A stretch of 15,839 nt of DNA from Prevotella sp. (GCA_031285625.1 JAITVV010000034.1:1-15839); one strand, 5' to 3'; shown: positions 1 through 15,839, counted from the first letter of the stretch. Notes: generated from the sequence alone by a model not told the origin. Translations and numbers: made by a program.

Positions 1-3000
1 TTGACAAGCACAGGCCAGAAAGACAAAAAGGCCAATTCGGCACGCTACGGCTTTTTGACATCGAGTAACAAGCTATTGAACAAAGTGGATATTGCTTTCG
101 AGGGAGAAACCCTGCGCAGTTATACTTTTGAATATAAGCAGGGAGCATTCAATACGAATATCCTGACGAAAGTAAACCATATCGATTCACAGGGCAATGT
201 ATTCGCTTCGCATGATATGGATTATTATGACGATGTAAAATCTACCGAAGGATATAAACCGTTCAGTGCAAGCGCGGAAACATGGAATTTGCATGATGAC
301 GAGTTGAACGCGGGATTTGTCAATCCGGTGTCTAATCTCGGTGTTCCCGGATTTAGCGACAAGGCTTCGGCTTTGGGCGGCAGCAAAAGCAGTTCAAAAA
401 CGGTATCCATGTATGTAGGTGTAGGTCCGGGAGCTGAATCTAGTAAAAGGTTCTCCGGAGGAGCAAGTTATGGGCACTCCACGACAACTGATACGGGACT
501 GTCTACACTCATCGATATTAATGGAGACGGACTACCGGATAAAGTATACAAAAAAGGAAATAAACTTTATTATCGTCCCAATATATCCCAATCATCGGGT
601 ACAGACTTCAAATATGGGGATGAGACAGGAATAAAAGGAGATGTCAAGGACTTTTCCAAATCTAAAAGCAGGTCGAATGCCTGGGGTGCAAAAGCCATCG
701 GTTCCTTTGGTATTGTAACACCAACGATAGGAACAGATTACGATCATTACAACAATGAGACTTCTACTTATTTTGCAGATGCAAACAATGATGGTTTAGT
801 CGATATAGTGGTTGGTGGTGATGTTTATTTTAACCATATTGAAAAAGACGCCAACGGGAATTTAATACCGACCTTCACGTTGAGCAGCGGTGATACGCCA
901 AGCCCGATAATGGGTGGCGGCGTTATCGACACCGGCGATACCGAAGTAGACCCGCAGGAACAGGAAGATATGATAAAATATTCGCCCCTGCAGGATGTTG
1001 TTCGCGTGTGGGAAGCCCCGTTTAACGGAACAATTAAAATAGAAGGGAATGTCAGCTTAATGCAGCCTGAGACCGGATATGACGAAACAGAATACGAAAA
1101 GGCCGATGGCGTGCGTGTGGCTATTCAGGTAGCAGGCAGTGAAAAATGGAGCAAAACCATTGCCAAAGGTGACTTTGCTTCTTATCCCGCAACAGTAAGT
1201 AGTGTAACTGTTGCCAAAGGGCAGAAAGTGTATTTTCGCGTACAGTCGGGAACAAATGAAATGTCCAACGGTGCATTCGATGAAGTAAGCTGGTCGCCCG
1301 TGATTACCTATACCGACCGCACCAATTACACCAATCCGGATGCCCTTGGTACAGCCATATATAAAATATCCGATGCGGGCTTTGTCAGTATTGAAAGTCC
1401 GAATTATATTCCTTCATCTGAAACCGTAACTGTTTCCGGCCGTTTTGTCAAGCCTGTAACCTCGGACGATGTTACGCTGAAAGCCATATTATCCAACAAT
1501 AAAACGCTGGAAGACGAAGACCAGACACCGAACCCGGCTTATCAGGAAGTAGCCGTCTACCAGAGGACATTCGGTTGGAACGAAACCTATAACGGGGATA
1601 TTTCCTTTAATATAAACAATACCATATCCGGCGAAAACCTGCAGCTTATTGTATATAGTGAGACAAATGTCGATTTTGGCAAAATAAAATGGAGTCCGGC
1701 TATCAGTTATACGGTTGGCGGAAATACAACGAATGCACCGGCATCCGTTCATTATCCGGTCTTTGCATCACAGGTATCGGAAGGGCAGCCTTACAATCTG
1801 GCAGCAGACGGTAACCTGCGGGTAGAGCCGAAATTTTCAGGATTGGCGGGCTTGCCGAATACCTCGGTAAGCGGAACGCTCCTGATGGCAGTGAAAAATG
1901 TAACCGGACTGGTAGCCAAACAGGAAGTGTCTATTGCCAACGGCGTTGTGGCGGCAAGTTCTACCATTAATTCTGTTGCCGCGGAAGCCGGGACTATCTG
2001 GGTGGAATATTATGTTCCCGACAAAGTACTCTTATCAACATTAGGTACTCCTTCGGCTTTGATTACAGTGAACGGGGTAGCCTCAACCGTGGCGGCAAGT
2101 ACATTTACCACCCGTGATAATGAAGGCTACGGCAACATGTACAGGGGTTGGGGACAATTCGTATATAATGCCGCTGACGGGCGTTATGGCAATCCTATCG
2201 CTGAAAACCTGTTGAAAATGCCGGAAACTGAAACCGAAACCGACCCGATGGCAATGGTTTTAGGAATCATGTCTCCCGCCGATACAAGGGATTTTTGGAG
2301 CGGAACAGATCCGAATACCTATATAAAAGGCGATGTGATGGGCGCGTCCCGTTTGGGTGAACAGGATGTCGTCCTGACCAATCCGCTGGAAGGACTTGAA
2401 AGCATGGGAAATTTAAATGGAGCATGCCTTGAAGGTTCCGGCCAAATAGCAATAGGTTTAAAGAGCCGGGGCGAAAGTATTTCCGGACAAGCCGGAGCTT
2501 CGGTCGGTGTTCCCGGAATTAACGGTTCGGGGACTTTGAATAAAGCACAGGGCTGGCAGGATATAGAAACAGCTTATACAGATATGAATGGCGACGGATT
2601 CCCTGATATTGTAACAAAAAATCAAATACAATTGACAAATCCGCGCGGCGGTTTTGACGGGGAGGTTATTTCCGGTGATTTTAAATCGCACAGTACCAAT
2701 AGTAATACCATTATTGCACTTGGCGCTGCCGGCCAGCATTCCCATACGGCAACACTTCCGAAAGCAGGTGTTACTCAGCGGGCAAGTACTGTTCTTCTGA
2801 ATCAGGCCATAACAGCCATCAAAGCCTCGGAAGCAAACGCCGACCTTTCCGGAGGCGGTTCTTATAACAATAACAGCAGTAAAACGGAATATTCATTGAT
2901 AGATATAAATGGCGATGGATTACCTGATAAAATCCTGTCGGATAAAAAAGTCCAGATAAACTTTGGTTATGGATTTTCAGAATCGGTTGACTGGAATCTG

Positions 3001-6000
3001 GATAAAATCAATGAAGGTTCGGGTTATACCATTGGGTTGAATGCCGGTGGAGGAGTCGGCTTAAAATGGGGATTTGATAAAATCGCATCCAGTTTTTCCG
3101 GAGGGTTCAGTATAAATACAACACATGGAGCAGTTGATTATACACTGATGGATATAAACTCGGACGGATTGATAGATAAAGTGTGGAAGGACGGTGATAA
3201 TGTAAAAGTGTCATTTAATACAGGGAATGGATTTTCCCAAGTTGTAACATGGCAGGGTATTGAGAATATATCCAAATCAGCGTCAACAGCAGAATCTGCC
3301 AATCTTGCATTTACAGTTGGTATTCCGATACCAATAATAGGAATCAGGGTTGTTATTAATCCCGGCGGTTCTATATCCCAGGCTATGAGCCGTACATTAA
3401 TGGAATTGCGCGACATCGACGGCGACGGCTTCCCCGAAATCGTCTCCTCGGACGAAGACGGTAAGATGACCGTTTATCGCTCCACTATCGCAAGAACCAA
3501 TAAACTAAAAACAGTAAACAACCCGCTCGGCGGCAGCTTTACCCTCGACTACACACGTTCGCAGGCCACTTACGACCATCCGGGCGGTAAATGGGTGATG
3601 CACTCCGTAGAAGTAAACGACGGCATCAAGGATGACGGTGCCAATATGAAAACCGTCTTCGACTATCAGGATGGGAAACAGGAACGCCACGAACGCGAGT
3701 TCTTAGGTTTCGGTAAGGTAATCACCAGGAATATCGATACCGAAGCAAACGAAGAAAATAAAGTGTACCGCCAGGCTATACAGCAGTATGATGTAGCGAA
3801 TGTCTATACCGCGGGTAACCAGATACGTTCGGTTGTGGAAGATGCCCAGGGTAATAAATTCACAGAAAGCGTGAACGAGTACCATGCCTATAAGGTAAAA
3901 GCATCCGCAGACAACTATACCTTTACGGCGGACAATACCTTCTGTACCGACAGGGCTATTGCCTTTACTCCACTGAAATACACCAAGTCGGTCGTGTACG
4001 AAGGACAGTCGGACGGCATGACAGCCAACGAAAGTTTCTACGAATACTACCTGAACGGTAACTACGGCGACCTGAAGAACTACAAGTACAGCGACAGGGG
4101 TACACTGGGCAATACAGGAACCGGAGCATATAATTACCAGACATCCGTAGAATACGCCCACAATACGGCAAAACATATCTTCGGATTACCAACTAAGGTA
4201 CAGGTCAAAGGCTCGGACGGAGTACTGTACCGTCAAACCGAAGCTGCTTATGATATGAATTACGCCAGCCACCTGACTAAAGTAACCCAAACTCTGGACG
4301 CAGGCAATAAAGCGGTGATCGATATTACTTACGACAGGGACGGCAATATCAAGCAGAAGACATTGCCTGCCAACAGCAAGGGGCAAAGGATGTGGTACAA
4401 GTATTTGTATGACCGCGACTATAACATGTATGTGGAACGTGTGGAAGATGCTTTCGGCTACCGCAGTGAAATGGAAGATTACGACTACCGTTACGGTATC
4501 CCGCTCACGACACGCGATATGAACGGCTATACGCTGGAAATCACTATCGACCATTTGGGACGAGTGGAAACCATTACCGGGCCGAACGAACAGGTACTGG
4601 GATTGCCGTATACCATTAAGTTCGAGTATCACCCACAGGTTGTAACTTCAACAAATGGTGAAATCACTTCTCCTGCTTATGCCGTAACCAAACATTACGA
4701 CCCGCAGAACCCGGACGATGATTTGGAAACCGTAACATTTGTCGATGGGTTCGGTAGAGCCGTACAGGTGAAGAAAGACGGGGTTGTAACCGCTACTACT
4801 AACGGAACCAACCCGCAGGAACAAAAAGTAATGATTGTCAGCGGACGCGCCAAGTTCGACCCGTTCGGACGTGTCAGGGAAGCGTTCTATCCTGTCAGTG
4901 AAGCAACAGGGAACAAAACCGTGTTTAACCTTGCTTTCGACAATGTAACGCCGACTAAGACCGAATACGATGTAATGGACAGGGCGGTAAAAACTATCCT
5001 GCCTGACAACAGCGAATCGCTGATGGCTTATACAAAGGATAACGCAAGCCGTACTCTTGTTACTACCGTGACCGATGCAATGGGCGGAAAACAGTCCACC
5101 TTTACCAACGGTTCGGGACTGACTGTCAAGACAGAACAGTACTCCGGCCCTGACGGTACGATTACTACGAAGTTCGAGTTCGACCCGGTTAACCAGCTGT
5201 TGAAAGCCATAGACAACGGCAATAACGAAACCGTATCGGCTTACGATATGGCGGGAAGAAGGACACAGGTGATACACCCTGCATCGGGTAAGACTTCATT
5301 CAAATATGATAACGCAAGCAACCTGCTGTCAAAGCAGACTGCCAATCTGGAGGCGGAAGGTAAGGAAATCACCTACGAATACGATTACTCCCGTTTGACA
5401 GCGATTAACTATCCGGATAACCCGCAGAACAATGTGAAGTACACGTATGGGAATAGGAACGCCTCGTTCAACCGTGTAGGACGCCTGATGTTGCAGGAAG
5501 ACGCTACAGGTGCGCAGGAGTTCGATTACGACAGGCTGGGTAATATCGAAAGAGTCAGGAGGACGGTGATCATCCCGAACCAGGCGATAGCTACATACGT
5601 GACCCAATGGAAATACGATAGCTGGAACAGGATTGAACAGATGATCTATCCCGACTTGGAAAAGGTAAGCTACGCATATAACACAGGCGGCTTATTGGAA
5701 AGCGTAAAGGGAGAGAAATCCTACTCGTATAACTATGTGAACAGGCTGGGCTATGACAAGTTTGAGCAGCGCATCTATATGAAGTACTGCAACGGTGCGG
5801 AAACCTCATACAATTATGACCCGCAACGCAGAAGGTTATCCAACCTGATGGTTATAAGCGGAAAAGAAAGCCGTAAGGAGATAATGAACAATGCTTATAC
5901 ATATGATAAGGTGGATAATGTATTGAAAGTAATCAATACGGCACCACTGCCAAGTACGGGAGCTATGGGCGGACAGATGAGCCATACCTATAATTATGAC

Positions 6001-7962
6001 GGGCTGTACCGTTTGCAAAGCGCGACAGGTACTTATGCAGGAGCAGACAGCAAGTCGGCAGGCTACAGTCTGGAAATGGCGTATGACAATTTGCATAATA
6101 TTGTCAGCAAGAAGCAGCATGTGCAGCAAAGCGGTATCCAGTTCGATGGAATACTGAAAGCGGGTTATGACCTCGCTTACAATTATGAAAACAATCCGTT
6201 CCAAATCAGCAACCTGAAGGACGACAGCTACCGTACCGAAAGCGATACCATCGCTAACGATGTAATTAAGCGGAACCATGCTTATGAGTACGATGCTAAC
6301 GGAAACCTTGTCTATGTGAATACCGGACGTGAAAAGCAGGACGGACAGGCGGAAGACAAGGCACAGGAAAAGAAGCTGCGCTGGGATGAAGAGAACCGCT
6401 TGCAGTCTATCTATACCAACGGTTTTATTGCAGGGTACTGGTACGATGCTGCCGGAGAACGTGTAATCAAGACCAGCGGTGATGACGAAGGTATTTATGT
6501 GAACGATGTGTTTAGTGGCGGAAGAACCGAAACGGCTGACTTTACAGCGTATATTAATCCGTACTTAGTTGTATCGAAAGGCGGAAGCTATACCAAGCAT
6601 ATTTATATCGGTAGCCAACGTATTGTATCCAAGTTAGGTGATCTCGACAGTTACGGACAAGACCCGAGACGTATCGAGTATGCGGGAAGTAATGTGGATG
6701 GCGCGAAAGTAGACTACAAGTCAAAATATTCGGCTTCGCAACAGGCTATTAAGGATAATTATGCTACCTTTGAAGTGCCTTATCATGGAAAAGATAATGA
6801 TGACTATGTGAATGGGCAAGGTTTCTGTTGCGATGATACACCAAGGCTGAAATCATTTGACCCGGGCAAAAATGACAATCCGGAATTATTCCAGTATTAT
6901 TATCACTCCGACCATTTAGGCAGTAGTTCTTTGATAACGAATTTGGATGGTGAAGTTGTTCAGCATGTGGAGTATGTGCCATTCGGTGAGGTCTTTATCG
7001 AAGAAAGGAATAATACGTGGAATACCCCTTATTTGTTTAACGCTAAAGAGTTAGACGAGGAAACGGGCATGTATTATTATGGGAAACGTTATTACGACCC
7101 AAGAATATCACTCTGGTTATCGGCAGACCCGTTACAGGAAAAATATCCGAATATTTCTAGTTATGTTTATTGTCTAAATAATCCTATAAAATACATTGAC
7201 CCTGACGGCACGTGGGTACCTAATGCAGAAGGTAATTTAACTGCTGAAGAAGGAGATAACATGGAAACATTAAGAACTTATTTGACTGAAATATATGGGA
7301 CTTCAGGGATAATGCAAGATGAGTGGGACGAATTAGAAAACCAAGTAAATGAATTGAAACAATCTTCTGTTGGAGGAGATATATCTGGAAATACAGTTAA
7401 TTCTTCATCAGGTTTGTTTGAAAATCTTGTGGGAACATATCTTCAAACAAAAGCTAATTCGGATGATTCTTGGGGCTATCCACAGGAATTGGACGGTCAA
7501 GGTAATCTATGCTCTCCAACTACATTCAATAGAGTTAGTAAAGCTATGCAATTTGTATATGGTAAAGATATTTTAGGAAAGACCAGTGGGCGAAATCCGC
7601 TATATCAGAACTGGAATAACTTTGCAGGAACAACGGGAGTAAAATATGGAGAGGAAATGCTTCCAAGTATGGGTTATGGGACATTGGTTAATGAGCCGGA
7701 CATTCTTTCTGGAAAACTGAAAGCTGGAGCAGTATTAAGAATGACACAATCTCCAGGACCTCAAAACACTCCTGTTTCTTGGCATGCTGTTATTTTCTTG
7801 AATTACACCTATGGTGATGATGGAAATATTGATGGATTAACTTATTGGCAGCAAAAAACAAGTATTGGATATGTTAATTCTATCAAATTTTCTTACGATA
7901 ATAAAGGAAAATACTCATTTACATATGGATATAAACCTAAATTAGGCTCAAATTTTAAATGA
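1..7962 (+). CDS. Large Rhs/YD-repeat polymorphic toxin, fused TcB/TcC-like (SpvB-end, FG-GAP propeller, YD shell, Rhs-associated core, variable C-terminal toxin); 5' end lies outside the window
   Basis: Open frame from base 1 (TTG start is an edge artefact). Opening segment RYGF...LRSYTFEY resembles the end of SpvB/TcB N-terminal domains. Six DxxxDG.PD-type FG-GAP motifs start at nt 514, 778, 2581, 2902, 3151, 3412. TcdB-middle-like ERHEREFLGFGKV, many YD repeats, core motifs YYHSDHLGSS, PYLFNAKELDEETGMYYYGKRYYDP and NPIKYIDPDG (DPDG at 7198-7209). Confidence 0.93.
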   Translation: MTSTGQKDKKANSARYGFLTSSNKLLNKVDIAFEGETLRSYTFEYKQGAFNTNILTKVNHIDSQGNVFASHDMDYYDDVKSTEGYKPFSASAETWNLHDDELNAGFVNPVSNLGVPGFSDKASALGGSKSSSKTVSMYVGVGPGAESSKRFSGGASYGHSTTTDTGLSTLIDINGDGLPDKVYKKGNKLYYRPNISQSSGTDFKYGDETGIKGDVKDFSKSKSRSNAWGAKAIGSFGIVTPTIGTDYDHYNNETSTYFADANNDGLVDIVVGGDVYFNHIEKDANGNLIPTFTLSSGDTPSPIMGGGVIDTGDTEVDPQEQEDMIKYSPLQDVVRVWEAPFNGTIKIEGNVSLMQPETGYDETEYEKADGVRVAIQVAGSEKWSKTIAKGDFASYPATVSSVTVAKGQKVYFRVQSGTNEMSNGAFDEVSWSPVITYTDRTNYTNPDALGTAIYKISDAGFVSIESPNYIPSSETVTVSGRFVKPVTSDDVTLKAILSNNKTLEDEDQTPNPAYQEVAVYQRTFGWNETYNGDISFNINNTISGENLQLIVYSETNVDFGKIKWSPAISYTVGGNTTNAPASVHYPVFASQVSEGQPYNLAADGNLRVEPKFSGLAGLPNTSVSGTLLMAVKNVTGLVAKQEVSIANGVVAASSTINSVAAEAGTIWVEYYVPDKVLLSTLGTPSALITVNGVASTVAASTFTTRDNEGYGNMYRGWGQFVYNAADGRYGNPIAENLLKMPETETETDPMAMVLGIMSPADTRDFWSGTDPNTYIKGDVMGASRLGEQDVVLTNPLEGLESMGNLNGACLEGSGQIAIGLKSRGESISGQAGASVGVPGINGSGTLNKAQGWQDIETAYTDMNGDGFPDIVTKNQIQLTNPRGGFDGEVISGDFKSHSTNSNTIIALGAAGQHSHTATLPKAGVTQRASTVLLNQAITAIKASEANADLSGGGSYNNNSSKTEYSLIDINGDGLPDKILSDKKVQINFGYGFSESVDWNLDKINEGSGYTIGLNAGGGVGLKWGFDKIASSFSGGFSINTTHGAVDYTLMDINSDGLIDKVWKDGDNVKVSFNTGNGFSQVVTWQGIENISKSASTAESANLAFTVGIPIPIIGIRVVINPGGSISQAMSRTLMELRDIDGDGFPEIVSSDEDGKMTVYRSTIARTNKLKTVNNPLGGSFTLDYTRSQATYDHPGGKWVMHSVEVNDGIKDDGANMKTVFDYQDGKQERHEREFLGFGKVITRNIDTEANEENKVYRQAIQQYDVANVYTAGNQIRSVVEDAQGNKFTESVNEYHAYKVKASADNYTFTADNTFCTDRAIAFTPLKYTKSVVYEGQSDGMTANESFYEYYLNGNYGDLKNYKYSDRGTLGNTGTGAYNYQTSVEYAHNTAKHIFGLPTKVQVKGSDGVLYRQTEAAYDMNYASHLTKVTQTLDAGNKAVIDITYDRDGNIKQKTLPANSKGQRMWYKYLYDRDYNMYVERVEDAFGYRSEMEDYDYRYGIPLTTRDMNGYTLEITIDHLGRVETITGPNEQVLGLPYTIKFEYHPQVVTSTNGEITSPAYAVTKHYDPQNPDDDLETVTFVDGFGRAVQVKKDGVVTATTNGTNPQEQKVMIVSGRAKFDPFGRVREAFYPVSEATGNKTVFNLAFDNVTPTKTEYDVMDRAVKTILPDNSESLMAYTKDNASRTLVTTVTDAMGGKQSTFTNGSGLTVKTEQYSGPDGTITTKFEFDPVNQLLKAIDNGNNETVSAYDMAGRRTQVIHPASGKTSFKYDNASNLLSKQTANLEAEGKEITYEYDYSRLTAINYPDNPQNNVKYTYGNRNASFNRVGRLMLQEDATGAQEFDYDRLGNIERVRRTVIIPNQAIATYVTQWKYDSWNRIEQMIYPDLEKVSYAYNTGGLLESVKGEKSYSYNYVNRLGYDKFEQRIYMKYCNGAETSYNYDPQRRRLSNLMVISGKESRKEIMNNAYTYDKVDNVLKVINTAPLPSTGAMGGQMSHTYNYDGLYRLQSATGTYAGADSKSAGYSLEMAYDNLHNIVSKKQHVQQSGIQFDGILKAGYDLAYNYENNPFQISNLKDDSYRTESDTIANDVIKRNHAYEYDANGNLVYVNTGREKQDGQAEDKAQEKKLRWDEENRLQSIYTNGFIAGYWYDAAGERVIKTSGDDEGIYVNDVFSGGRTETADFTAYINPYLVVSKGGSYTKHIYIGSQRIVSKLGDLDSYGQDPRRIEYAGSNVDGAKVDYKSKYSASQQAIKDNYATFEVPYHGKDNDDYVNGQGFCCDDTPRLKSFDPGKNDNPELFQYYYHSDHLGSSSLITNLDGEVVQHVEYVPFGEVFIEERNNTWNTPYLFNAKELDEETGMYYYGKRYYDPRISLWLSADPLQEKYPNISSYVYCLNNPIKYIDPDGTWVPNAEGNLTAEEGDNMETLRTYLTEIYGTSGIMQDEWDELENQVNELKQSSVGGDISGNTVNSSSGLFENLVGTYLQTKANSDDSWGYPQELDGQGNLCSPTTFNRVSKAMQFVYGKDILGKTSGRNPLYQNWNNFAGTTGVKYGEEMLPSMGYGTLVNEPDILSGKLKAGAVLRMTQSPGPQNTPVSWHAVIFLNYTYGDDGNIDGLTYWQQKTSIGYVNSIKFSYDNKGKYSFTYGYKPKLGSNFK
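5911..7209 (+). repeat. Direct repeat copy 1 (Rhs core, 1299 bp)
   Basis: GTGGATAATGTATTGAAAGTAATCAATACGGCACCACTGCCAAGT...GACCCTGACGGC aligns with 8722-10020; many differences are at third codon positions. Confidence 0.95.
7210..7962 (+). other. Variable C-terminal toxin domain (~250 aa): LysM-like start plus papain/NlpC-P60-like catalytic domain (putative peptidoglycan amidase/peptidase)
   Basis: Follows the DPDG motif, with a drop in GC. GNLC (Cys codon 7510-7512), LKAGAVLRM, WHAVIF (His 7783-7785) and LTYWQQ (7849-7854) match the order of NlpC/P60/CHAP-type catalytic residues. Assignment by motif recognition only. Confidence 0.55.
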
Positions 7963-8720
7963 AAAAGACATTGTTGTTTATTATATTTTTGTATGCTGTA
8001 CGCTTGTTTTCTCAGGAGTACAGCATACAGAATAATGAAATATTATTAATCTTGGGAGATAATAGTTTAAAAAATGAATGTTTAATAAAAGAATTACGAA
8101 CAGATTCATCATTAAATAGAAGTTGTAAAAGTTTAGTTATTGATGGAATATTTAAGTATTTACCTCATAATATTTACCATATTGATTGGATTGAACAACT
8201 ACAAATAAATATTAGTGATACCGTCTTTATAGACAAAAATTTTTCAAAATTTAAGAAATTAGAAGGTTTACTTATTTTTGGAGGGCATGTAAATATTGAA
8301 AAAAAAGTTAATTTACCAAATATAAAATACTTAAAATTACAATATGTTAAATTCATCAACGGTAAATTCCCTGAAGCAATTCTTAATTGGATAAATCTCA
8401 CTGATATTATAGTTACGGAAGGCAATATAAATACGATACCTAATAATATCATCAAATTAAACAAATTAGAAATTTTAGGATTAAGTAATAACAATATTAA
8501 TAGCATACCTGACGAATTATATAGCCTTGAAAGTCTACAAAACTTATCTATATACGGTAATAAACTAAAAAAAATATCTCCGAAAATATGTAATATGAAA
8601 AGTCTGAAATACATTCATTTGGATCGAAATCTAATAATAGATGATCGAGTTAGTACCTGTTTGAAGGCTCGTATTATAAGATTTGACGAATATAATATGC
8701 CTTATGAAGAGGACATGTAG
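7959..8720 (+). CDS. Secreted leucine-rich-repeat protein, candidate cognate immunity protein
   Basis: ATGA overlap with the Rhs stop (7959-7962). Signal peptide MKKTLLFIIFLYAVRLFS|Q. ~23-aa LRRs (IPNNIIKLNKLEILGLSNNNINS, IPDELYSLESLQNLSIYGNKLKK). Very low GC (11/60 in 8041-8100 by hand count). LRR identity is clear; the immunity role is inferred from position. Confidence 0.88.
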   Translation: MKKTLLFIIFLYAVRLFSQEYSIQNNEILLILGDNSLKNECLIKELRTDSSLNRSCKSLVIDGIFKYLPHNIYHIDWIEQLQINISDTVFIDKNFSKFKKLEGLLIFGGHVNIEKKVNLPNIKYLKLQYVKFINGKFPEAILNWINLTDIIVTEGNINTIPNNIIKLNKLEILGLSNNNINSIPDELYSLESLQNLSIYGNKLKKISPKICNMKSLKYIHLDRNLIIDDRVSTCLKARIIRFDEYNMPYEEDM

Positions 8721-10739: not shown

Positions 10740-11633
10740 TTATTTTAGCGAATCCCTATCTCTTAGCCGGTATTTTGCAGGGGTCATTCCGGTATGCTTG
10801 CGGAAAAATTTAATGAAGTAAGTAAAATCGAAACCCAGTTCGAGGGCAATCTCTCCTTGGCTAAGCGTCGTATTTTCCAACAGCCGGATAGCTTCCGTCA
10901 GTATTTTCTCATTGATATACTTTTTAACAGAAATCCCATATACCGAGGAAACGGCTTCTGCCAACTTTTTTTCAGATATGCCCAGTTCCTTTGCATAGAA
11001 CCCGACCTGCTTTTGTTTCCGGTAATGCATGTCCAGCAGTATCTTGAACTGCCGGACTTCTTCTTCATGCGTGCAATTCTGCCCGGTGGGGAACCCGAAC
11101 CGTTGCTGCCGGGACAGGTATTCTCTTTCCAATGTTATCAGCAGGTTATGCAGCCAATTACGCAACAGTATCAACTCAGTTTCCGTCCCTTTGCCTGTTT
11201 TTGTTTTCATCAGTGAGAGGTAAGCTTCCACGCACGCTTTAAAACAGTCATTTTGTGGGTTTATAATTGCATAATCGCAGCGAAAGAGGGAACATCCGCT
11301 CAGGAATTCTATCTTTTCTTTCGTACTGCCGAAAAAAGTATCATTGAAAAGGATAACATCGCCATTACATTTTTGCCTGGAGAATTTATGCAGGATATTC
11401 TGGTTTATAACCAGCAGGCTATTATGCCTGATCCTTACCCTTTTATTATAACCGACATAATGGAAATTATCTTCACCCCTGTACCGGAAAACATGATAAA
11501 AAACAGTCCGGTGGTAGTGGTAAAGGGCTTCCTGCGAATGTACCTGCCGGTATAGTTCGTCGAAAGAGTAAGCTTTGATTCCCTGCGAATCCAGTAATTC
11601 CTCCCAGCTGTAACGGGGCATATCAGTAACCAT
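10740..11633 (-). CDS. AraC-family transcriptional regulator
   Basis: C-terminal AraC double HTH: KQVGFYAKELGISEKKL...EAIRLLENTTLSQGEIALELGFDFTYFIKFFRKHTGMTPAKYR. Cupin-like N-terminal part (HYHRTVFYHVF). Start probably ATG 11633 (alternatives 11621, TTG 11639), overlapping the upstream gene stop. Confidence 0.92.
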   Translation of the reverse strand: MVTDMPRYSWEELLDSQGIKAYSFDELYRQVHSQEALYHYHRTVFYHVFRYRGEDNFHYVGYNKRVRIRHNSLLVINQNILHKFSRQKCNGDVILFNDTFFGSTKEKIEFLSGCSLFRCDYAIINPQNDCFKACVEAYLSLMKTKTGKGTETELILLRNWLHNLLITLEREYLSRQQRFGFPTGQNCTHEEEVRQFKILLDMHYRKQKQVGFYAKELGISEKKLAEAVSSVYGISVKKYINEKILTEAIRLLENTTLSQGEIALELGFDFTYFIKFFRKHTGMTPAKYRLRDRDSLK

Positions 11634-12459
11634 TTTCAATTTCGTTTATTATTTCCCGGTAGCTTATCCTTAAATCTTTCGGGTGCATCCCTTTCCCGTG
11701 GGAAAAAAAACGGATGAAATCAGACACATCATAATCGAGTTCATGGGCGATCCGCGTAATGCTTTTATTACCGAATACCAGTAGCTTCATAGCCTCTATC
11801 AGGATCCGGTTCGTCAATATTTCCCGGAATGTTTTATTATAGATAAGTTGCAATGATTTCCTCAACATTTTTTCAGTTATGCCTATCCTGCCTGCATAAA
11901 AGTTTATTTTCTTTTCCCTGACGGCATAGTTGTCTATAAGTCCCATAAATTGCAACGCGTGATTTAACAGGTGGCCCGATTTAAGCTGCCCTTCGTAATT
12001 TACCGCCGAAGAAAGCAACACCATGTTTACCAGCAAATTCCTTAATGCCGGCGCCCGCATATCATCGTGTTGGGAACAATACTCCATGTATAATAAATCC
12101 ATGCATTTCTTCTGTTCCCCATTGAGATACCCCATATCGATAATACCCTCCGGCCGGACGTGGGAAAAAGACAGCTTTAATAAAGCCTTATGTTCGTTCA
12201 ATGTAAAAAACGCTTCGGCTATTATAATCACATAACCTTTCAAATATAAGCGGTAATATACCGGTATCAGGTATGGGTCTACCAGCAGTACCGAATCATC
12301 CCGGAGATGAAGGGCTTCTCTTGTCCCGGCCGATAAATCCTGCATGCATTTTTCAACGTATAGCCCGTAATATAAAGAAGCGTCATCCATATGAGCCGAA
12401 TAAAACCGGTACAAATCCCGGCTATCCAGCGGAAATATCCAACATTTCATATCATTCAT
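11623..12459 (-). CDS. AraC-family transcriptional regulator (divergent)
   Basis: C-terminal HTH: KKINFYAGRIGITEKML...LIEAMKLLVFGNKSITRIAHELDYDVSDFIRFFSHGKGMHPKDLR. Confidence 0.88.
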   Translation of the reverse strand: MNDMKCWIFPLDSRDLYRFYSAHMDDASLYYGLYVEKCMQDLSAGTREALHLRDDSVLLVDPYLIPVYYRLYLKGYVIIIAEAFFTLNEHKALLKLSFSHVRPEGIIDMGYLNGEQKKCMDLLYMEYCSQHDDMRAPALRNLLVNMVLLSSAVNYEGQLKSGHLLNHALQFMGLIDNYAVREKKINFYAGRIGITEKMLRKSLQLIYNKTFREILTNRILIEAMKLLVFGNKSITRIAHELDYDVSDFIRFFSHGKGMHPKDLRISYREIINEIENGY

Positions 12460-12837: not shown

Positions 12838-14850
12838 TCAAGGTGTATTTATTCCGTTAAACTCAGCCTGATTAATAGCCCAAGCCATCATGTTGGCAAA
12901 GAGACGGGAATTTTCAACATTACCCGTTCCTCCACCGGTCGTCGTCCATCCCGTTCGTGTTATAGGCTTATATGTCGTAACCTCTATCGCAAAAGGATAA
13001 GTAGTGGAACTGGCTCCTGTTGCATTCGGGCCGGTATTTCCCCTGCTGGGATTAGCAAGAATTCCTCCTTCGCCATTATAAATAAAGTTAATGTTTGGAT
13101 CTCTAAAGAAAATAAGATTTCCGTTTGACGCTTTACTATATACAATCAGATTTGCAGCTGTAAGCCCAAGTACAGAACGCACGTCACCACAGTCTCCTCC
13201 CCAAAACAGGCCTCTCAAGTCCCCGAACGGACCGTTTATAATAGGATCATTTGCAGATCCGGGAGTGTTCGGAAGTCTGGGATTATAAATGGTGGTTAGA
13301 GGTGTAGTTATAACAGTGGCGACATCATCATATAACGCCCTGATAAATAAATAATCATAATCGTGTTGGTCGAGCATGAGTAGAACGCCTTTATTGTTCA
13401 CATAGTTTTTTACCGCTTGGATAAATTGTGCTGAAAGGCCTGCATTCCAGTGAAAATAATAACCTATAATGACAATATCAGGTTTACTGTTTATTGCGTC
13501 AATCATAGACTGATTTGGAGAGCCTATGATGACAGTTGATTCATACCCCTCACACTTAACGGTACTATAGTCTTCCGTACCGAAATTATAAAGAGATGTG
13601 AGTACCTTGTTTGCCCCGGAGCCTCCATTTGTCGGCTGTGCCAGATAACCCGGTGAAGTGTCGACCGAGCCTATATGTAATATTTTTTTCTTGGGAATAG
13701 CCACGATAACGGTCGCTTTACAGGTAGCTGTGGTTTTTTTACTGTTCGTTGTTATAATAAATTCTTTTTTGTCCACGCTGTTCGGGATTCCATATCCCTG
13801 CAGTTTTACAGTCTGGCTCAAGCTTGTCAATATGCCTTGTCCTTTGAAATATATACCATCTATAGTATTGGTCCCGATAACGTATGTGGATCCCGCAACA
13901 CTGTTCCAGTCGGCAGCGTCAATGTTTAATACAATTTCAATATAGTTGGCAAGAGGATTAAGCTCCCGGTCAAGCACATATGTGCCATGTGTCTTTATAC
14001 TGCCGCAATCCATCCTGAACAGGGGCTTCCTGGATGAATCTTCTACTTTTATTTTTTTCTCACAAAGCGTACCGTCTTGCTTTGTCAGCGGCTTATTATT
14101 CATTGTGACAGTCAGTGCGTCACCCGGATTGCCGGTAGGTGTAAGCCAAAACGGTGTTCCACTTCCCGGAATTGTAATGACATATATACCCTTTTCCATA
14201 AATACTCCTGATGCGATAAAGAAATAACCGTTTGTTTTGCTACCGTCGCCCGCATAGCCTGGAATAGCGGTAATTGTATACGCTCCGGGTTTGGTTATCT
14301 CCAGCTTTATTGATAAATAGTTGGAAGCGTCCAGTGGAACGGCGTCACTGTTTGACGGTGTATTTGGATACACGTCAGGCGATTTATAGTATCCGAAGAC
14401 TTCAAAATCAGCACAGTCCACTATATGGCCGGTTGCATTCCCCATCTTGTTCTGAAGGCAGTTCCATTGTTCCCCGTCCCACTGGTTCAGGCCCGGGCAT
14501 AAATCTTTACTATCGTCTTCGGCCAGGTTATAAACAATAAGCCCGGCATGTTTTTCCCTCAATGAATTCGTATTGTTTACAAATTCCGGGTCATCAACCG
14601 GAATGAAGGGTTCAAGAGTCTTTGTATTCACAAGTTTTACGCGCGGTAATAACAAGCCTCCGTCACTCTTTCCTGCGGTTATATTGGTGTCATCGTCTAC
14701 AGAAGGAACAGTACCGGCAGCTTGTTTTACTTTCAGATCCAGCAATGCTGCGCGTGTCGGCGGAATGCCCGATCCGATAGTTACCTGTGCCTGTATATTC
14801 AGTGTAAGGATGTATAACGTAACCGTACAGATTAACAATGCTTTTTTCAT
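12838..14850 (-). CDS. Secreted modular protein (670 aa): signal peptide, conserved Bacteroidetes QVTIG...LLLPRV...WDG N-terminal domain, two beta-rich repeats, alpha/beta C-terminal domain (class I GATase/ThuA-like pattern)
   Basis: SPI-type signal MKKALLICTVTLYILTLNIQA|Q. Motifs AALLDLK, GGLLLPRVKL, GLIVYNL, CPGLNQWDGEQWNCL. Repeats at aa ~139-270 and ~276-384. C-terminal KKILHIG...PDIVIIGY...VKNYVNNKGVLLML...FANMMAWAI. Confidence 0.88.
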   Translation of the reverse strand: MKKALLICTVTLYILTLNIQAQVTIGSGIPPTRAALLDLKVKQAAGTVPSVDDDTNITAGKSDGGLLLPRVKLVNTKTLEPFIPVDDPEFVNNTNSLREKHAGLIVYNLAEDDSKDLCPGLNQWDGEQWNCLQNKMGNATGHIVDCADFEVFGYYKSPDVYPNTPSNSDAVPLDASNYLSIKLEITKPGAYTITAIPGYAGDGSKTNGYFFIASGVFMEKGIYVITIPGSGTPFWLTPTGNPGDALTVTMNNKPLTKQDGTLCEKKIKVEDSSRKPLFRMDCGSIKTHGTYVLDRELNPLANYIEIVLNIDAADWNSVAGSTYVIGTNTIDGIYFKGQGILTSLSQTVKLQGYGIPNSVDKKEFIITTNSKKTTATCKATVIVAIPKKKILHIGSVDTSPGYLAQPTNGGSGANKVLTSLYNFGTEDYSTVKCEGYESTVIIGSPNQSMIDAINSKPDIVIIGYYFHWNAGLSAQFIQAVKNYVNNKGVLLMLDQHDYDYLFIRALYDDVATVITTPLTTIYNPRLPNTPGSANDPIINGPFGDLRGLFWGGDCGDVRSVLGLTAANLIVYSKASNGNLIFFRDPNINFIYNGEGGILANPSRGNTGPNATGASSTTYPFAIEVTTYKPITRTGWTTTGGGTGNVENSRLFANMMAWAINQAEFNGINTP

Positions 14851-15158: not shown

Positions 15159-15839
15159 ATGAAGTTTTATAACAGGATAAAGGAGTTAGAGATATTGGCC
15201 CGTACATTAGAGCAATCGAAGAAAAGTTCTTGCTTTACAGTTATGGTCGGTCGCCGCCGTATCGGTAAGACTTCCCTTTTACTGGAATCTGTAAAAGGGC
15301 AGAAATATCTTTACCTGTTTGTGTCACGTAAAAGCGAACCGCTTCTTTGCGAGCAGCTCCAAAAAGATGCGGCAGATGCTTTAGGGCTACAGATTTTTGG
15401 GGCTATTAGCCGGTTTAAGGATCTTTTTGAGCAGTTATTGATTTTCGCTACAAAAGAACATTATACACTTATCATTGATGAATTTCAGGAATTCGATAAT
15501 GTGAATCCATCTATATTCAGTGATGTTCAGAATCTATGGGATCAGTATAAAGACAAGACTAAAATCAATTTTATTGCTTCCGGTTCTATTTATTCGATGA
15601 TGATGAAAATTTTTGAGAACAGGAAAGAACCGTTATTCGGCCGGCTTACCTCAAAAATAACGTTGCAACCTTTCGCTGTTAGGGTAATAAAAGAAATACT
15701 GAATGATTATAACCCGGAATATACACCGGAAGATTTTTTATGCCTCTACATGTTGACAGGTGGAGTTCCTAAATACATTGACCTGCTGATGGAAGCCGGA
15801 GCGGTAACCAAGGATAAAATACTGGATATGGCTACACGC
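15159..15839 (+). CDS. Archaeal-type AAA/P-loop ATPase (ATPase_2 / DUF234-associated family), 3' partial
   Basis: Absent from the ORF track because there is no stop in the window. Own translation MKFYNRIKELEILARTLEQSKKSSCFTVMVGRRRIGKTSLL...; Walker A GRRRIGKT (15249-15272), Walker B LIIDEFQ (from 15468), IASGS, PLFGRL, TGGVPKY. Confidence 0.93.
   Translation, partial: MKFYNRIKELEILARTLEQSKKSSCFTVMVGRRRIGKTSLLLESVKGQKYLYLFVSRKSEPLLCEQLQKDAADALGLQIFGAISRFKDLFEQLLIFATKEHYTLIIDEFQEFDNVNPSIFSDVQNLWDQYKDKTKINFIASGSIYSMMMKIFENRKEPLFGRLTSKITLQPFAVRVIKEILNDYNPEYTPEDFLCLYMLTGGVPKYIDLLMEAGAVTKDKILDMATR

Follow-up and report, generated by a model that had tools for sequence, protein, structure and literature searches.

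A predicted 12-stranded barrel built from the propeller blades of a TcB-TcC-like Rhs toxin of Prevotella, and its possible role as a TcA-independent nozzle

How might a toxin enclosed in an Rhs cocoon reach another cell when neither a TcA injector nor a type VI secretion system (T6SS) partner is found with its gene? The question is raised by a stretch of 15,839 bases from Prevotella sp. (GCA_031285625.1, JAITVV010000034.1:1-15839), hereafter the window, meaning this whole stretch, which forms the first 15,839 bases of its contig. It opens on a gene for a fused TcB-TcC-like Rhs polymorphic toxin whose propeller blades carry six long Gly/Ser/Thr-rich hairpins. Structure predictions support the reading that the six hairpins fold together as one 12-stranded porin-like barrel. 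We propose tentatively, with a probability of roughly 45%, that this barrel is the TcA-independent nozzle of a Sec-exported single-chain cocoon toxin and enters the target membrane.

A first-pass annotation, made from the sequence, had placed six FG-GAP motifs in this gene, each preceded by a Gly/Ser-rich segment of about 40-70 amino acids, and had suggested that six hairpins from one chain could form a 12-stranded barrel that delivers the toxin independently of TcA and T6SS. Its observation was confirmed and its interpretation gained partial support. We applied the regular expression D-x-[DN]-x-D-G-x-x-[DE] to the 2653-amino-acid frame and obtained exactly six matches, at residues 172, 260, 861, 968, 1051 and 1138 (nucleotides 514, 778, 2581, 2902, 3151 and 3412), which are the six annotated positions to the base. 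A Gly/Ser/Thr-rich segment of 40-72 residues precedes each of them, and in the AlphaFold2 model described below all six are long hairpins that end at their motif, with 9-23 residues per strand. The gene and its hairpins, the latter located by the regular expression and by AlphaFold2, are as follows:

1..7962, + strand: fused TcB-TcC-like Rhs polymorphic toxin gene, 5'-truncated; 2653 amino acids kept, about 650 missing
376..540, + strand: hairpin 1 (residues 126-142 / 152-171) and Ca-loop motif 1 (residues 172-180)
658..804, + strand: hairpin 2 (residues 220-233 / 239-259) and motif 2 (residues 260-268)
2458..2607, + strand: hairpin 3 (residues 820-837 / 840-860) and motif 3 (residues 861-869)
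2686..2928, + strand: hairpin 4 (residues 896-906 / 953-967; polar) and motif 4
3013..3177, + strand: hairpin 5 (residues 1005-1013 / 1033-1050; low-confidence tip) and motif 5
3274..3438, + strand: hairpin 6 (residues 1092-1110 / 1115-1137; the most hydrophobic) and motif 6

Hairpins 1, 2, 3 and 6 are the longest. Instead of a tight turn, hairpin 4 has a low-confidence stretch of 46 residues (residues 907-952, nucleotides 2719-2856) with a low-confidence helix, not conserved in relatives, at residues 925-945. The first-pass annotation had left out this stretch of the motif-4 segment, as well as an insert of about 545 residues in the propeller. The distance from motif to motif is 88, 107, 83 and 87 residues, whereas two aligned TcdB2 motifs are 54 apart. 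This amounts to some 30-50 residues more in each blade, which makes the hairpins additions to the canonical TcB propeller.

Residue patterns were computed from 63 aligned homologues. Gly, Ser and Thr make up at least 45% of one face in 11 of the 12 hairpin strands, against 1 of the 33 other strands of the same model. In 9 of the 12 strands, hydrophobic residues account for 61-96% at the four tip-side positions of the opposite face. Towards the blade, the hydrophobic share of this face is 12-42% and the charged share 23-44%, and Tyr, Trp or His stand near the border of the two zones. Several small-face positions (G140, G142, G154, G229, G244 and G1035) are near-invariant, with 93-100% Gly/Ser/Thr. 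The pattern is not due to chance, given its frequency in hairpin and other strands and its retention across four phyla, with relatives from Actinomycetota, Myxococcota and Spirochaetota also carrying it. The alternation that a barrel would call for is present as Gly/Ser/Thr against hydrophobic faces in 9 of the 12 strands and fails in hairpin 4. Stem hairpins of beta-pore-forming toxins alternate Gly, Ser and Thr with hydrophobic residues, and place a polar upper stem over a hydrophobic membrane part. The residue pattern of the window hairpins is what would be expected of a stem whose lumen is polar, whose upper part is soluble and whose tip is embedded in a membrane.

We modelled residues 90-1260 of the window protein with AlphaFold2 from 44 aligned sequences (mean predicted local distance difference test score, pLDDT, 84.5; predicted template modelling score, pTM, 0.79) and a Pseudonocardiaceae (actinomycete) homologue from 54 aligned sequences (pLDDT 86.8, pTM 0.77). 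The same six hairpins were obtained in both, with strand pLDDT of about 64-93, mostly above 85. When Foldseek candidates were re-scored against the window model, TcB was best (6suf_F, Z 15.7, root-mean-square deviation [rmsd] 3.9, 375 residues aligned), and the translocator barrels of BrkA, NalP and EspP followed lower down (Z 8.5-8.8, 219-233 aligned, model residues ~47-1046). An unbiased structure search of the whole Protein Data Bank (48,161 chains) with the same model again ranked TcB first (Z 15.4) and 12-stranded outer-membrane barrels second; the matches after TcB included KdgM (4pr7_A, Z 11.9, rmsd 2.9, 156/171 aligned), NanC (2wjr_A, Z 11.1, 176/204 aligned), a Vibrio KdgM-type porin (8xua_A, Z 10.8, 187/210 aligned), FapF (Z 10.6), autotransporter barrels (Z 8.0-9.4, with AIDA-I at 9.4) and 9fdg, a designed 12-stranded membrane barrel (Z 8.9, 165/179 aligned). 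We take the named porins and translocators to have 12 strands; for 9fdg the strand number is in its title. These matches align over window-model residues ~62-1064, the span of the six hairpins. With the actinomycete model, TcB came first (Z 17.8) and barrels third, after TcB and the propeller lectin PVL (NalP, Z 13.2, 226/277 aligned; Hbp, 12.4; BrkA, 12.4). Across both models, 156-226 residues superpose on 12-stranded barrels at an rmsd of 2.6-3.8 Å, covering 81-94% of the target chains, with a sequence identity of 3-11%; a Pfam scan of the window protein returned no autotransporter or porin family.

Because coverage of the 12-stranded targets is near-complete in both models, a single barrel is the best reading of the six hairpins, and the earlier proposal of a 12-stranded barrel from one chain is upheld at the level of prediction. 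That there is no barrel, and that AlphaFold has made one out of long blade strands or flexible Gly/Ser loops, strikes us as very improbable. Such an artefact would be in keeping with evidence that consists of predictions, with alignments as shallow as these and with the low-confidence tips of hairpins 4 and 5. It sits poorly with the same six hairpins appearing in two models at high strand confidence, with the extent of the superpositions and with a two-faced pattern conserved from phylum to phylum.

As a separate observation, the propeller of the actinomycete model resembles the lectin propeller of UmbA4, from a Streptomyces umbrella toxin, in complex with teichuronic acid (9oee_A, Z 10.2; 257 residues aligned over residues 88-1050 of the model, 20% identity).

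What kind of protein carries this barrel? Since the window begins at the contig's first base and the frame is already open there, the 5' end of the gene was lost to the contig break. The closest named relative is a 3313-amino-acid Dysgonomonas protein, to which the window protein is 71% identical over 2445 amino acids (residues 679-3103 of the relative), and which has in addition a hydrophobic N-terminal segment, an extension of about 470 residues and an SpvB domain. In the full-length relative P0004, Pfam places the SpvB domain at residues 471-648 (E 6.7e-21). No SpvB match was found elsewhere in the window's own genome (an assembly 94% complete), the window protein lacking its N-terminus owing to the contig end. 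Pfam matches in the window protein are FG-GAP, FG-GAP_3, TcdB_toxin_midN and RHS_repeat, and NCBIfam recognizes the Rhs-associated core, which bears a DPDGTW motif, of the DPxG cleavage type, at residue 2400. A single-sequence search of residues 1-1300 against solved structures gave no match; a family profile was required, and it matched TcdB2-TccC3 at E 7.6e-59. The Pfam domains, the Rhs core and the profile match together therefore identify a fused TcB-TcC-like Rhs polymorphic toxin and, on these sequence assignments, the region is the FG-GAP propeller, the TcdB middle region and the RHS shell and core of such a protein. Its remaining parts are:

808..2445, + strand: insert of about 545 residues (residues ~270-815), beta-sandwich modules like carbohydrate-binding or lectin domains by structure matches
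3382..3771, + strand: TcdB_toxin_midN shell segment (residues 1128-1257; Pfam E 5.1e-16)
3772..7215, + strand: RHS/YD-repeat shell, ending in the Rhs-associated core (residues 2325-2403; Pfam, NCBIfam)
7216..7959, + strand: variable C-terminal toxin domain of about 250 residues, with no family match and a GC content of 0.35

The toxin tip of about 250 residues matched no Pfam or NCBIfam family, and tips differ among relatives; a language-model atlas search gave a weak CHAP/NlpC-P60-like lead for it (score 0.90-0.91, about 150 shared features).

The insert interrupts the propeller after blade 2 and before blade 3. Its modules match 1axk (model residues 241..697), 6yf6 (236..347), 8xmz (375..483) and 1gzt (504..604) at Z ~6, and the CBM51 structure 2ygm at Z 5.7. 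A gap of at least 400 residues between successive motifs, which we took as this insert, was present in nearly all of 269 homologues. In the actinomycete homologue (L023:5735-9220), the insert includes a part resembling a jelly roll of the C1q/TNF type (Z 8.4, rmsd 2.1). Such variation of fold by lineage hints that the insert may be a swappable module for receptor binding, located beside the barrel.

The insert also bears on a reading in which the barrel never enters a membrane and is a soluble structural plug or gate that closes the cocoon exit and regulates it, its belt buried against the insert, the N-terminal extension or the toxin. We consider this somewhat unlikely. The pTM values of both models imply that the insert is packed in a fixed way on propeller and barrel, near-invariant Gly of the kind found on the small face often marks tight protein-protein packing, and the hydrophobic belt is broken at hairpin 4; moreover, the shells of T6SS Rhs proteins and teneurins are sealed with plug domains. 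On geometric grounds, though, a barrel of 12 strands has a bore too large for its own side chains to fill, and the sole candidate for a plugging helix is the one in hairpin 4, of low confidence and not conserved. The passage from a hydrophobic tip to a charged base across an aromatic/His border looks like a membrane interface, and a plug would leave the toxin without a delivery route, no TcA or T6SS partner having been found.

Partners were sought in the family at large and in the window's own genome. Of 8000 candidates scored in a word-indexed search, 917 matched at E <=0.001, most of those listed being 3000-3350 amino acids long; exhaustive searching returned 1653 clusters at 50% identity, at least 668 of them at E <=1e-30. 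Relatives include proteins of human-gut Bacteroides, Prevotella and Segatella, and full-length relatives of about 3300 residues occur in Bacteroidota, Actinomycetota, Myxococcota and Spirochaetota. For the neighbourhoods we used the 38 loci with a long match, 22 from Bacteroidota and 16 from other phyla, Actinomycetota contributing 8. A hydrophobic N-terminal segment was present in 33 of the 38 giant proteins by a crude hydrophobicity test, which is not a signal-peptide predictor. Homologues of the VgrG and PAAR types of the window's own genome were absent from all 1321 open reading frames (ORFs) of the 38 loci, Pfam detected no PAAR domain in the window protein or its relatives, and no TcA-like family was found in 64 neighbouring ORFs of related loci. 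Consistent co-occurrence with tcA or with vgrG/PAAR was not seen at these loci.

In the window's own genome, TcA_TcB_BD gave no match, in a weak test to which control genomes were also silent. Ten frames of at least 1850 amino acids (the window's own gene, SprA and 8 others) included no TcA-like ORF, Pfam having been run on 7 of the 8 unassigned frames and on two shorter ones in a genome that is 94% complete and in which the sequence upstream of the toxin gene is unassembled; the frames scanned encode a polyketide synthase, a subtilase, macroglobulins, a restriction-type enzyme and a tetratricopeptide-repeat protein. The genome does hold five VgrG-like genes and one PAAR gene (C80:177742-185251, C52, C87 and C81), and a 1432-amino-acid DUF6531-RHS gene, built differently from the window toxin, lies beside one of the VgrG genes. 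A VipB/TssC sheath gave no match in this genome; the VgrG/PAAR genes are part of another contractile system, or else the assembly holds the T6SS only in part. The genome check thus found no TcA; it did find VgrG and PAAR genes, which lie away from the toxin gene, and SprA, a component of type IX secretion (T9SS). As for the delivery independent of TcA and T6SS that the first-pass annotation had put forward, the part concerning tcA, vgrG and PAAR neighbours agrees with the 38 loci; in Bacteroidota, however, a partner gene is conserved and delivery is not free of partners.

How, then, could the barrel serve delivery? In the reading that we prefer, the region would be the propeller gate of a Sec-exported single-chain cocoon toxin aimed at other bacteria. 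The inner strand of each FG-GAP blade would be lengthened into a hairpin, at about 20 residues per strand, and the resulting barrel would stand on the propeller axis as a nozzle that prolongs the cocoon exit channel and replaces the injector that TcA provides as a separate component. The unfolded C-terminal toxin would pass through a water-filled lumen walled by the Gly/Ser/Thr face; the tip belt, hydrophobic and collared by aromatic/His residues, would go into the target membrane, most plausibly the outer membrane of a competitor, and the lectin-like modules beside the barrel would bind the target surface. We infer the axial position of the modelled barrel from the fact that each hairpin continues into the strand just before the Ca-loop motif of its blade; that the two are coaxial, which face lines the lumen, that the barrel points away from the cocoon, that it inserts into a membrane and that the toxin passes through it are likewise inferred. 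The nozzle is favoured because the barrel is most readily taken as an extension of the TcB exit channel and because the family is present in Actinomycetota. The complete sequence of events, in which one chain does the work of A, B and C as a particle that is exported by Sec, bound through lineage-specific lectin- or C1q-type modules of the propeller, inserted by its barrel into the target outer membrane and emptied by threading the caged toxin through the lumen, is a possibility that we regard with some doubt.

Several observations weigh against the nozzle. The structural matches to barrels, at Z 8-13 on a 1170-residue model, are moderate, and the alignments of the two models share rows, so that the models are incompletely independent. 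The belt is incomplete, the strands of hairpin 4 having hydrophobic fractions of 0.23 and 0.37 and strand A of hairpin 5 one of 0.44, and with only about 4 alternate residues per strand it is thin for a membrane. In relatives, the tip of hairpin 4 is a variable, Lys/Arg/Ser-rich low-complexity stretch of 35-60 residues, often basic, which would be hard to drive across a bilayer. A pre-closed single-chain barrel would have to keep its hydrophobic belt shielded for as long as it is soluble, and the nozzle leaves unexplained how a periplasmic protein of about 3300 residues exits a two-membrane cell. Finally, 20 of the 22 Bacteroidota loci have, as the gene immediately upstream of that for the toxin, a conserved gene for a T9SS-sorted protein of ~450-1090 amino acids (L009, L010, L012, L015, L017, L020, L021, L024, L031, L033, L034, L038, L040, L043, L045, L046, L049, L052, L053 and L054), which ends 0-85 bases before the toxin gene or overlaps it. 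Of the two remaining Bacteroidota loci, one has the partner two genes upstream and the other is cut off by a contig end. A T9SS sorting domain was detected in 10 of 13 scanned partner genes at E <=1e-3, 6 of them above the Pfam cut-off. The family, named DUF8202 in the atlas, was absent from 16 of 16 non-Bacteroidota loci; its members might serve as a carrier, a tether or a cap. Small OMP_b-brl_2 barrel genes stand just upstream of the DUF8202 gene in 5 loci (L020:6267-7007, L021:4268-5715, L031:4886-5713, L033:4929-5798 and L038:4839-5726), which suggests a three-gene module of OMP_b-brl_2, DUF8202 and toxin. A search of the window's own genome did not recover the missing 5' end of the toxin gene; only short fragments resembling the partner's N-terminus were found, at the contig ends C48:1-307 and C72:3-107, their adjacency to the window contig being unproven.

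This context fits a further reading, which we rate as improbable, in which the barrel sits in the producer's own outer membrane in the manner of an (inverse) autotransporter, as a cocoon anchor or export aid in contact-dependent killing. Outer-membrane barrels, autotransporter translocators among them, are the best matches other than TcB for the window model and other than TcB and propellers for the actinomycete model; the signal-like N-terminus would place the protein in the periplasm, where the barrel-assembly machinery operates; the mostly short tips are like periplasmic turns and the large blades like surface loops; and the Bacteroidota loci add the T9SS-sorted protein and, in 5 cases, the OMP_b-brl_2 gene. 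Yet the same hairpins and barrel occur in Actinomycetota, most of which have no outer membrane, and these members argue against a role confined to that of the producer. The barrel is also discontinuous and not C-terminal, its identity to known barrels is very low with no autotransporter or porin family matched, and by homology with TcB its lumen would open the cocoon towards the producer's periplasm.

Downstream of the toxin gene, the window holds:

7959..8720, + strand: leucine-rich-repeat protein gene, its start overlapping the toxin stop codon
8683..10287, + strand: orphan Rhs C-terminal cassette with shell end, core (NCBIfam Rhs_assc_core) and a different tip
10740-12459, - strand; 12838-14850, - strand; 15159-15839, + strand: two adjacent AraC-type regulator genes, a 670-amino-acid ORF without a family match and the first part of an AAA ATPase gene

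The leucine-rich-repeat gene is the probable immunity gene, and an immunity-type gene downstream points to bacterial targets. The orphan cassette is 81.5% identical to residues 2653-3089 of P0004, and the GC content falls to 0.30-0.35 over the toxin tip and the leucine-rich-repeat gene; the three features together are what Rhs toxin/immunity loci typically show. Another contig (C70:1-4343) opens with a second copy of the 3' part of the Rhs gene, 81% identical to P0004, and it was probably the repetition of this locus that broke the assembly.

SpvB-Rhs proteins of large size are widespread, and how they are delivered has been an open problem ever since a 'TcdB/TcaC' polymorphic toxin class was listed by Zhang et al. 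2012 (PMC3482391). A barrel at the propeller gate would be a concrete hypothesis that hairpin deletions can test, and it offers a reason why TcA and T6SS would be unneeded. If it is true, the protein would be a compact single-gene protein-delivery machine, a translocation device without a known counterpart that adds a third way of delivering Rhs toxins to those by T6SS and TcA, with a bearing on competition in gut and soil communities. The accessible text of PMC3482391 and of a study of Apibacter (Steele and Moran 2021, PMC8125069) leaves the export or delivery route open and mentions no blade hairpins, barrel or propeller insert. Our literature search, from which subscription journals and bioRxiv supplements were out of reach, found no description of hairpins on the blades, or of a barrel, in Rhs or TcB-like proteins, nor, in the portions of text available, of a chimeric propeller-barrel fold.

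How does the window family compare with known systems? It is like the Tc BC cocoon (TcdB2-TccC3, YenB-YenC2) in its SpvB-type shell (in full-length relatives), FG-GAP propeller, TcdB_toxin_midN segment, RHS shell, Rhs core with DPxG motif and variable toxin. Unlike the BC components of Photorhabdus and Yersinia, it is one chain of about 3300 residues with a signal-like segment and an extension of about 470 residues, its blades are 83-107 rather than 54 residues apart, and it carries six barrel-modelled hairpins and the insert of about 545 residues. It also differs from the tripartite Tc toxin in that no TcA was found for it and an immunity-type gene lies downstream. With the TcdB/TcaC type, as far as the accessible text of PMC3482391 describes it, it shares signal peptide, SpvB domain, integrin-like propeller, RHS repeats, variable toxin and immunity gene, the N-terminal parts of the window protein being judged from relatives. 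According to the available portions of PMC8125069, SpvB/TcdB-Rhs genes of Apibacter adjoin T9SS sorting-domain genes, and the Bacteroidota loci of the window family likewise have T9SS-sorted neighbours. Mosquito SGS1 was set aside as a relative, as the accessible text of PMC9935623 gives it seven- and nine-bladed propellers and no barrel. The RHS shell and core are shared with T6SS Rhs effectors (RhsA, Tse15, Tre23), from which the window family differs in having neither a PAAR/VgrG-binding N-terminus nor vgrG neighbours. Its predicted fold and the hydrophobic belt on one face are those of 12-stranded outer-membrane barrels (KdgM/NanC; NalP, BrkA, Hbp, EspP and AIDA-I). Unlike these, to which it is only 3-11% identical, the window barrel is assembled from six hairpins spread over 1000 residues and interleaved with blades, and it also occurs in Actinomycetota. 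The barrels of alpha-haemolysin, aerolysin and anthrax protective antigen are built by at least 7 subunits after a prepore step. The likeness to aerolysin and protective antigen drawn in the first-pass annotation extends to the amphipathic hairpins, in 9 of 12 strands, and stops short of multi-subunit assembly; it is only an analogy, because those pores are oligomeric. In the window protein, by prediction, one chain would give all 12 strands and would be fused to its own cargo container.

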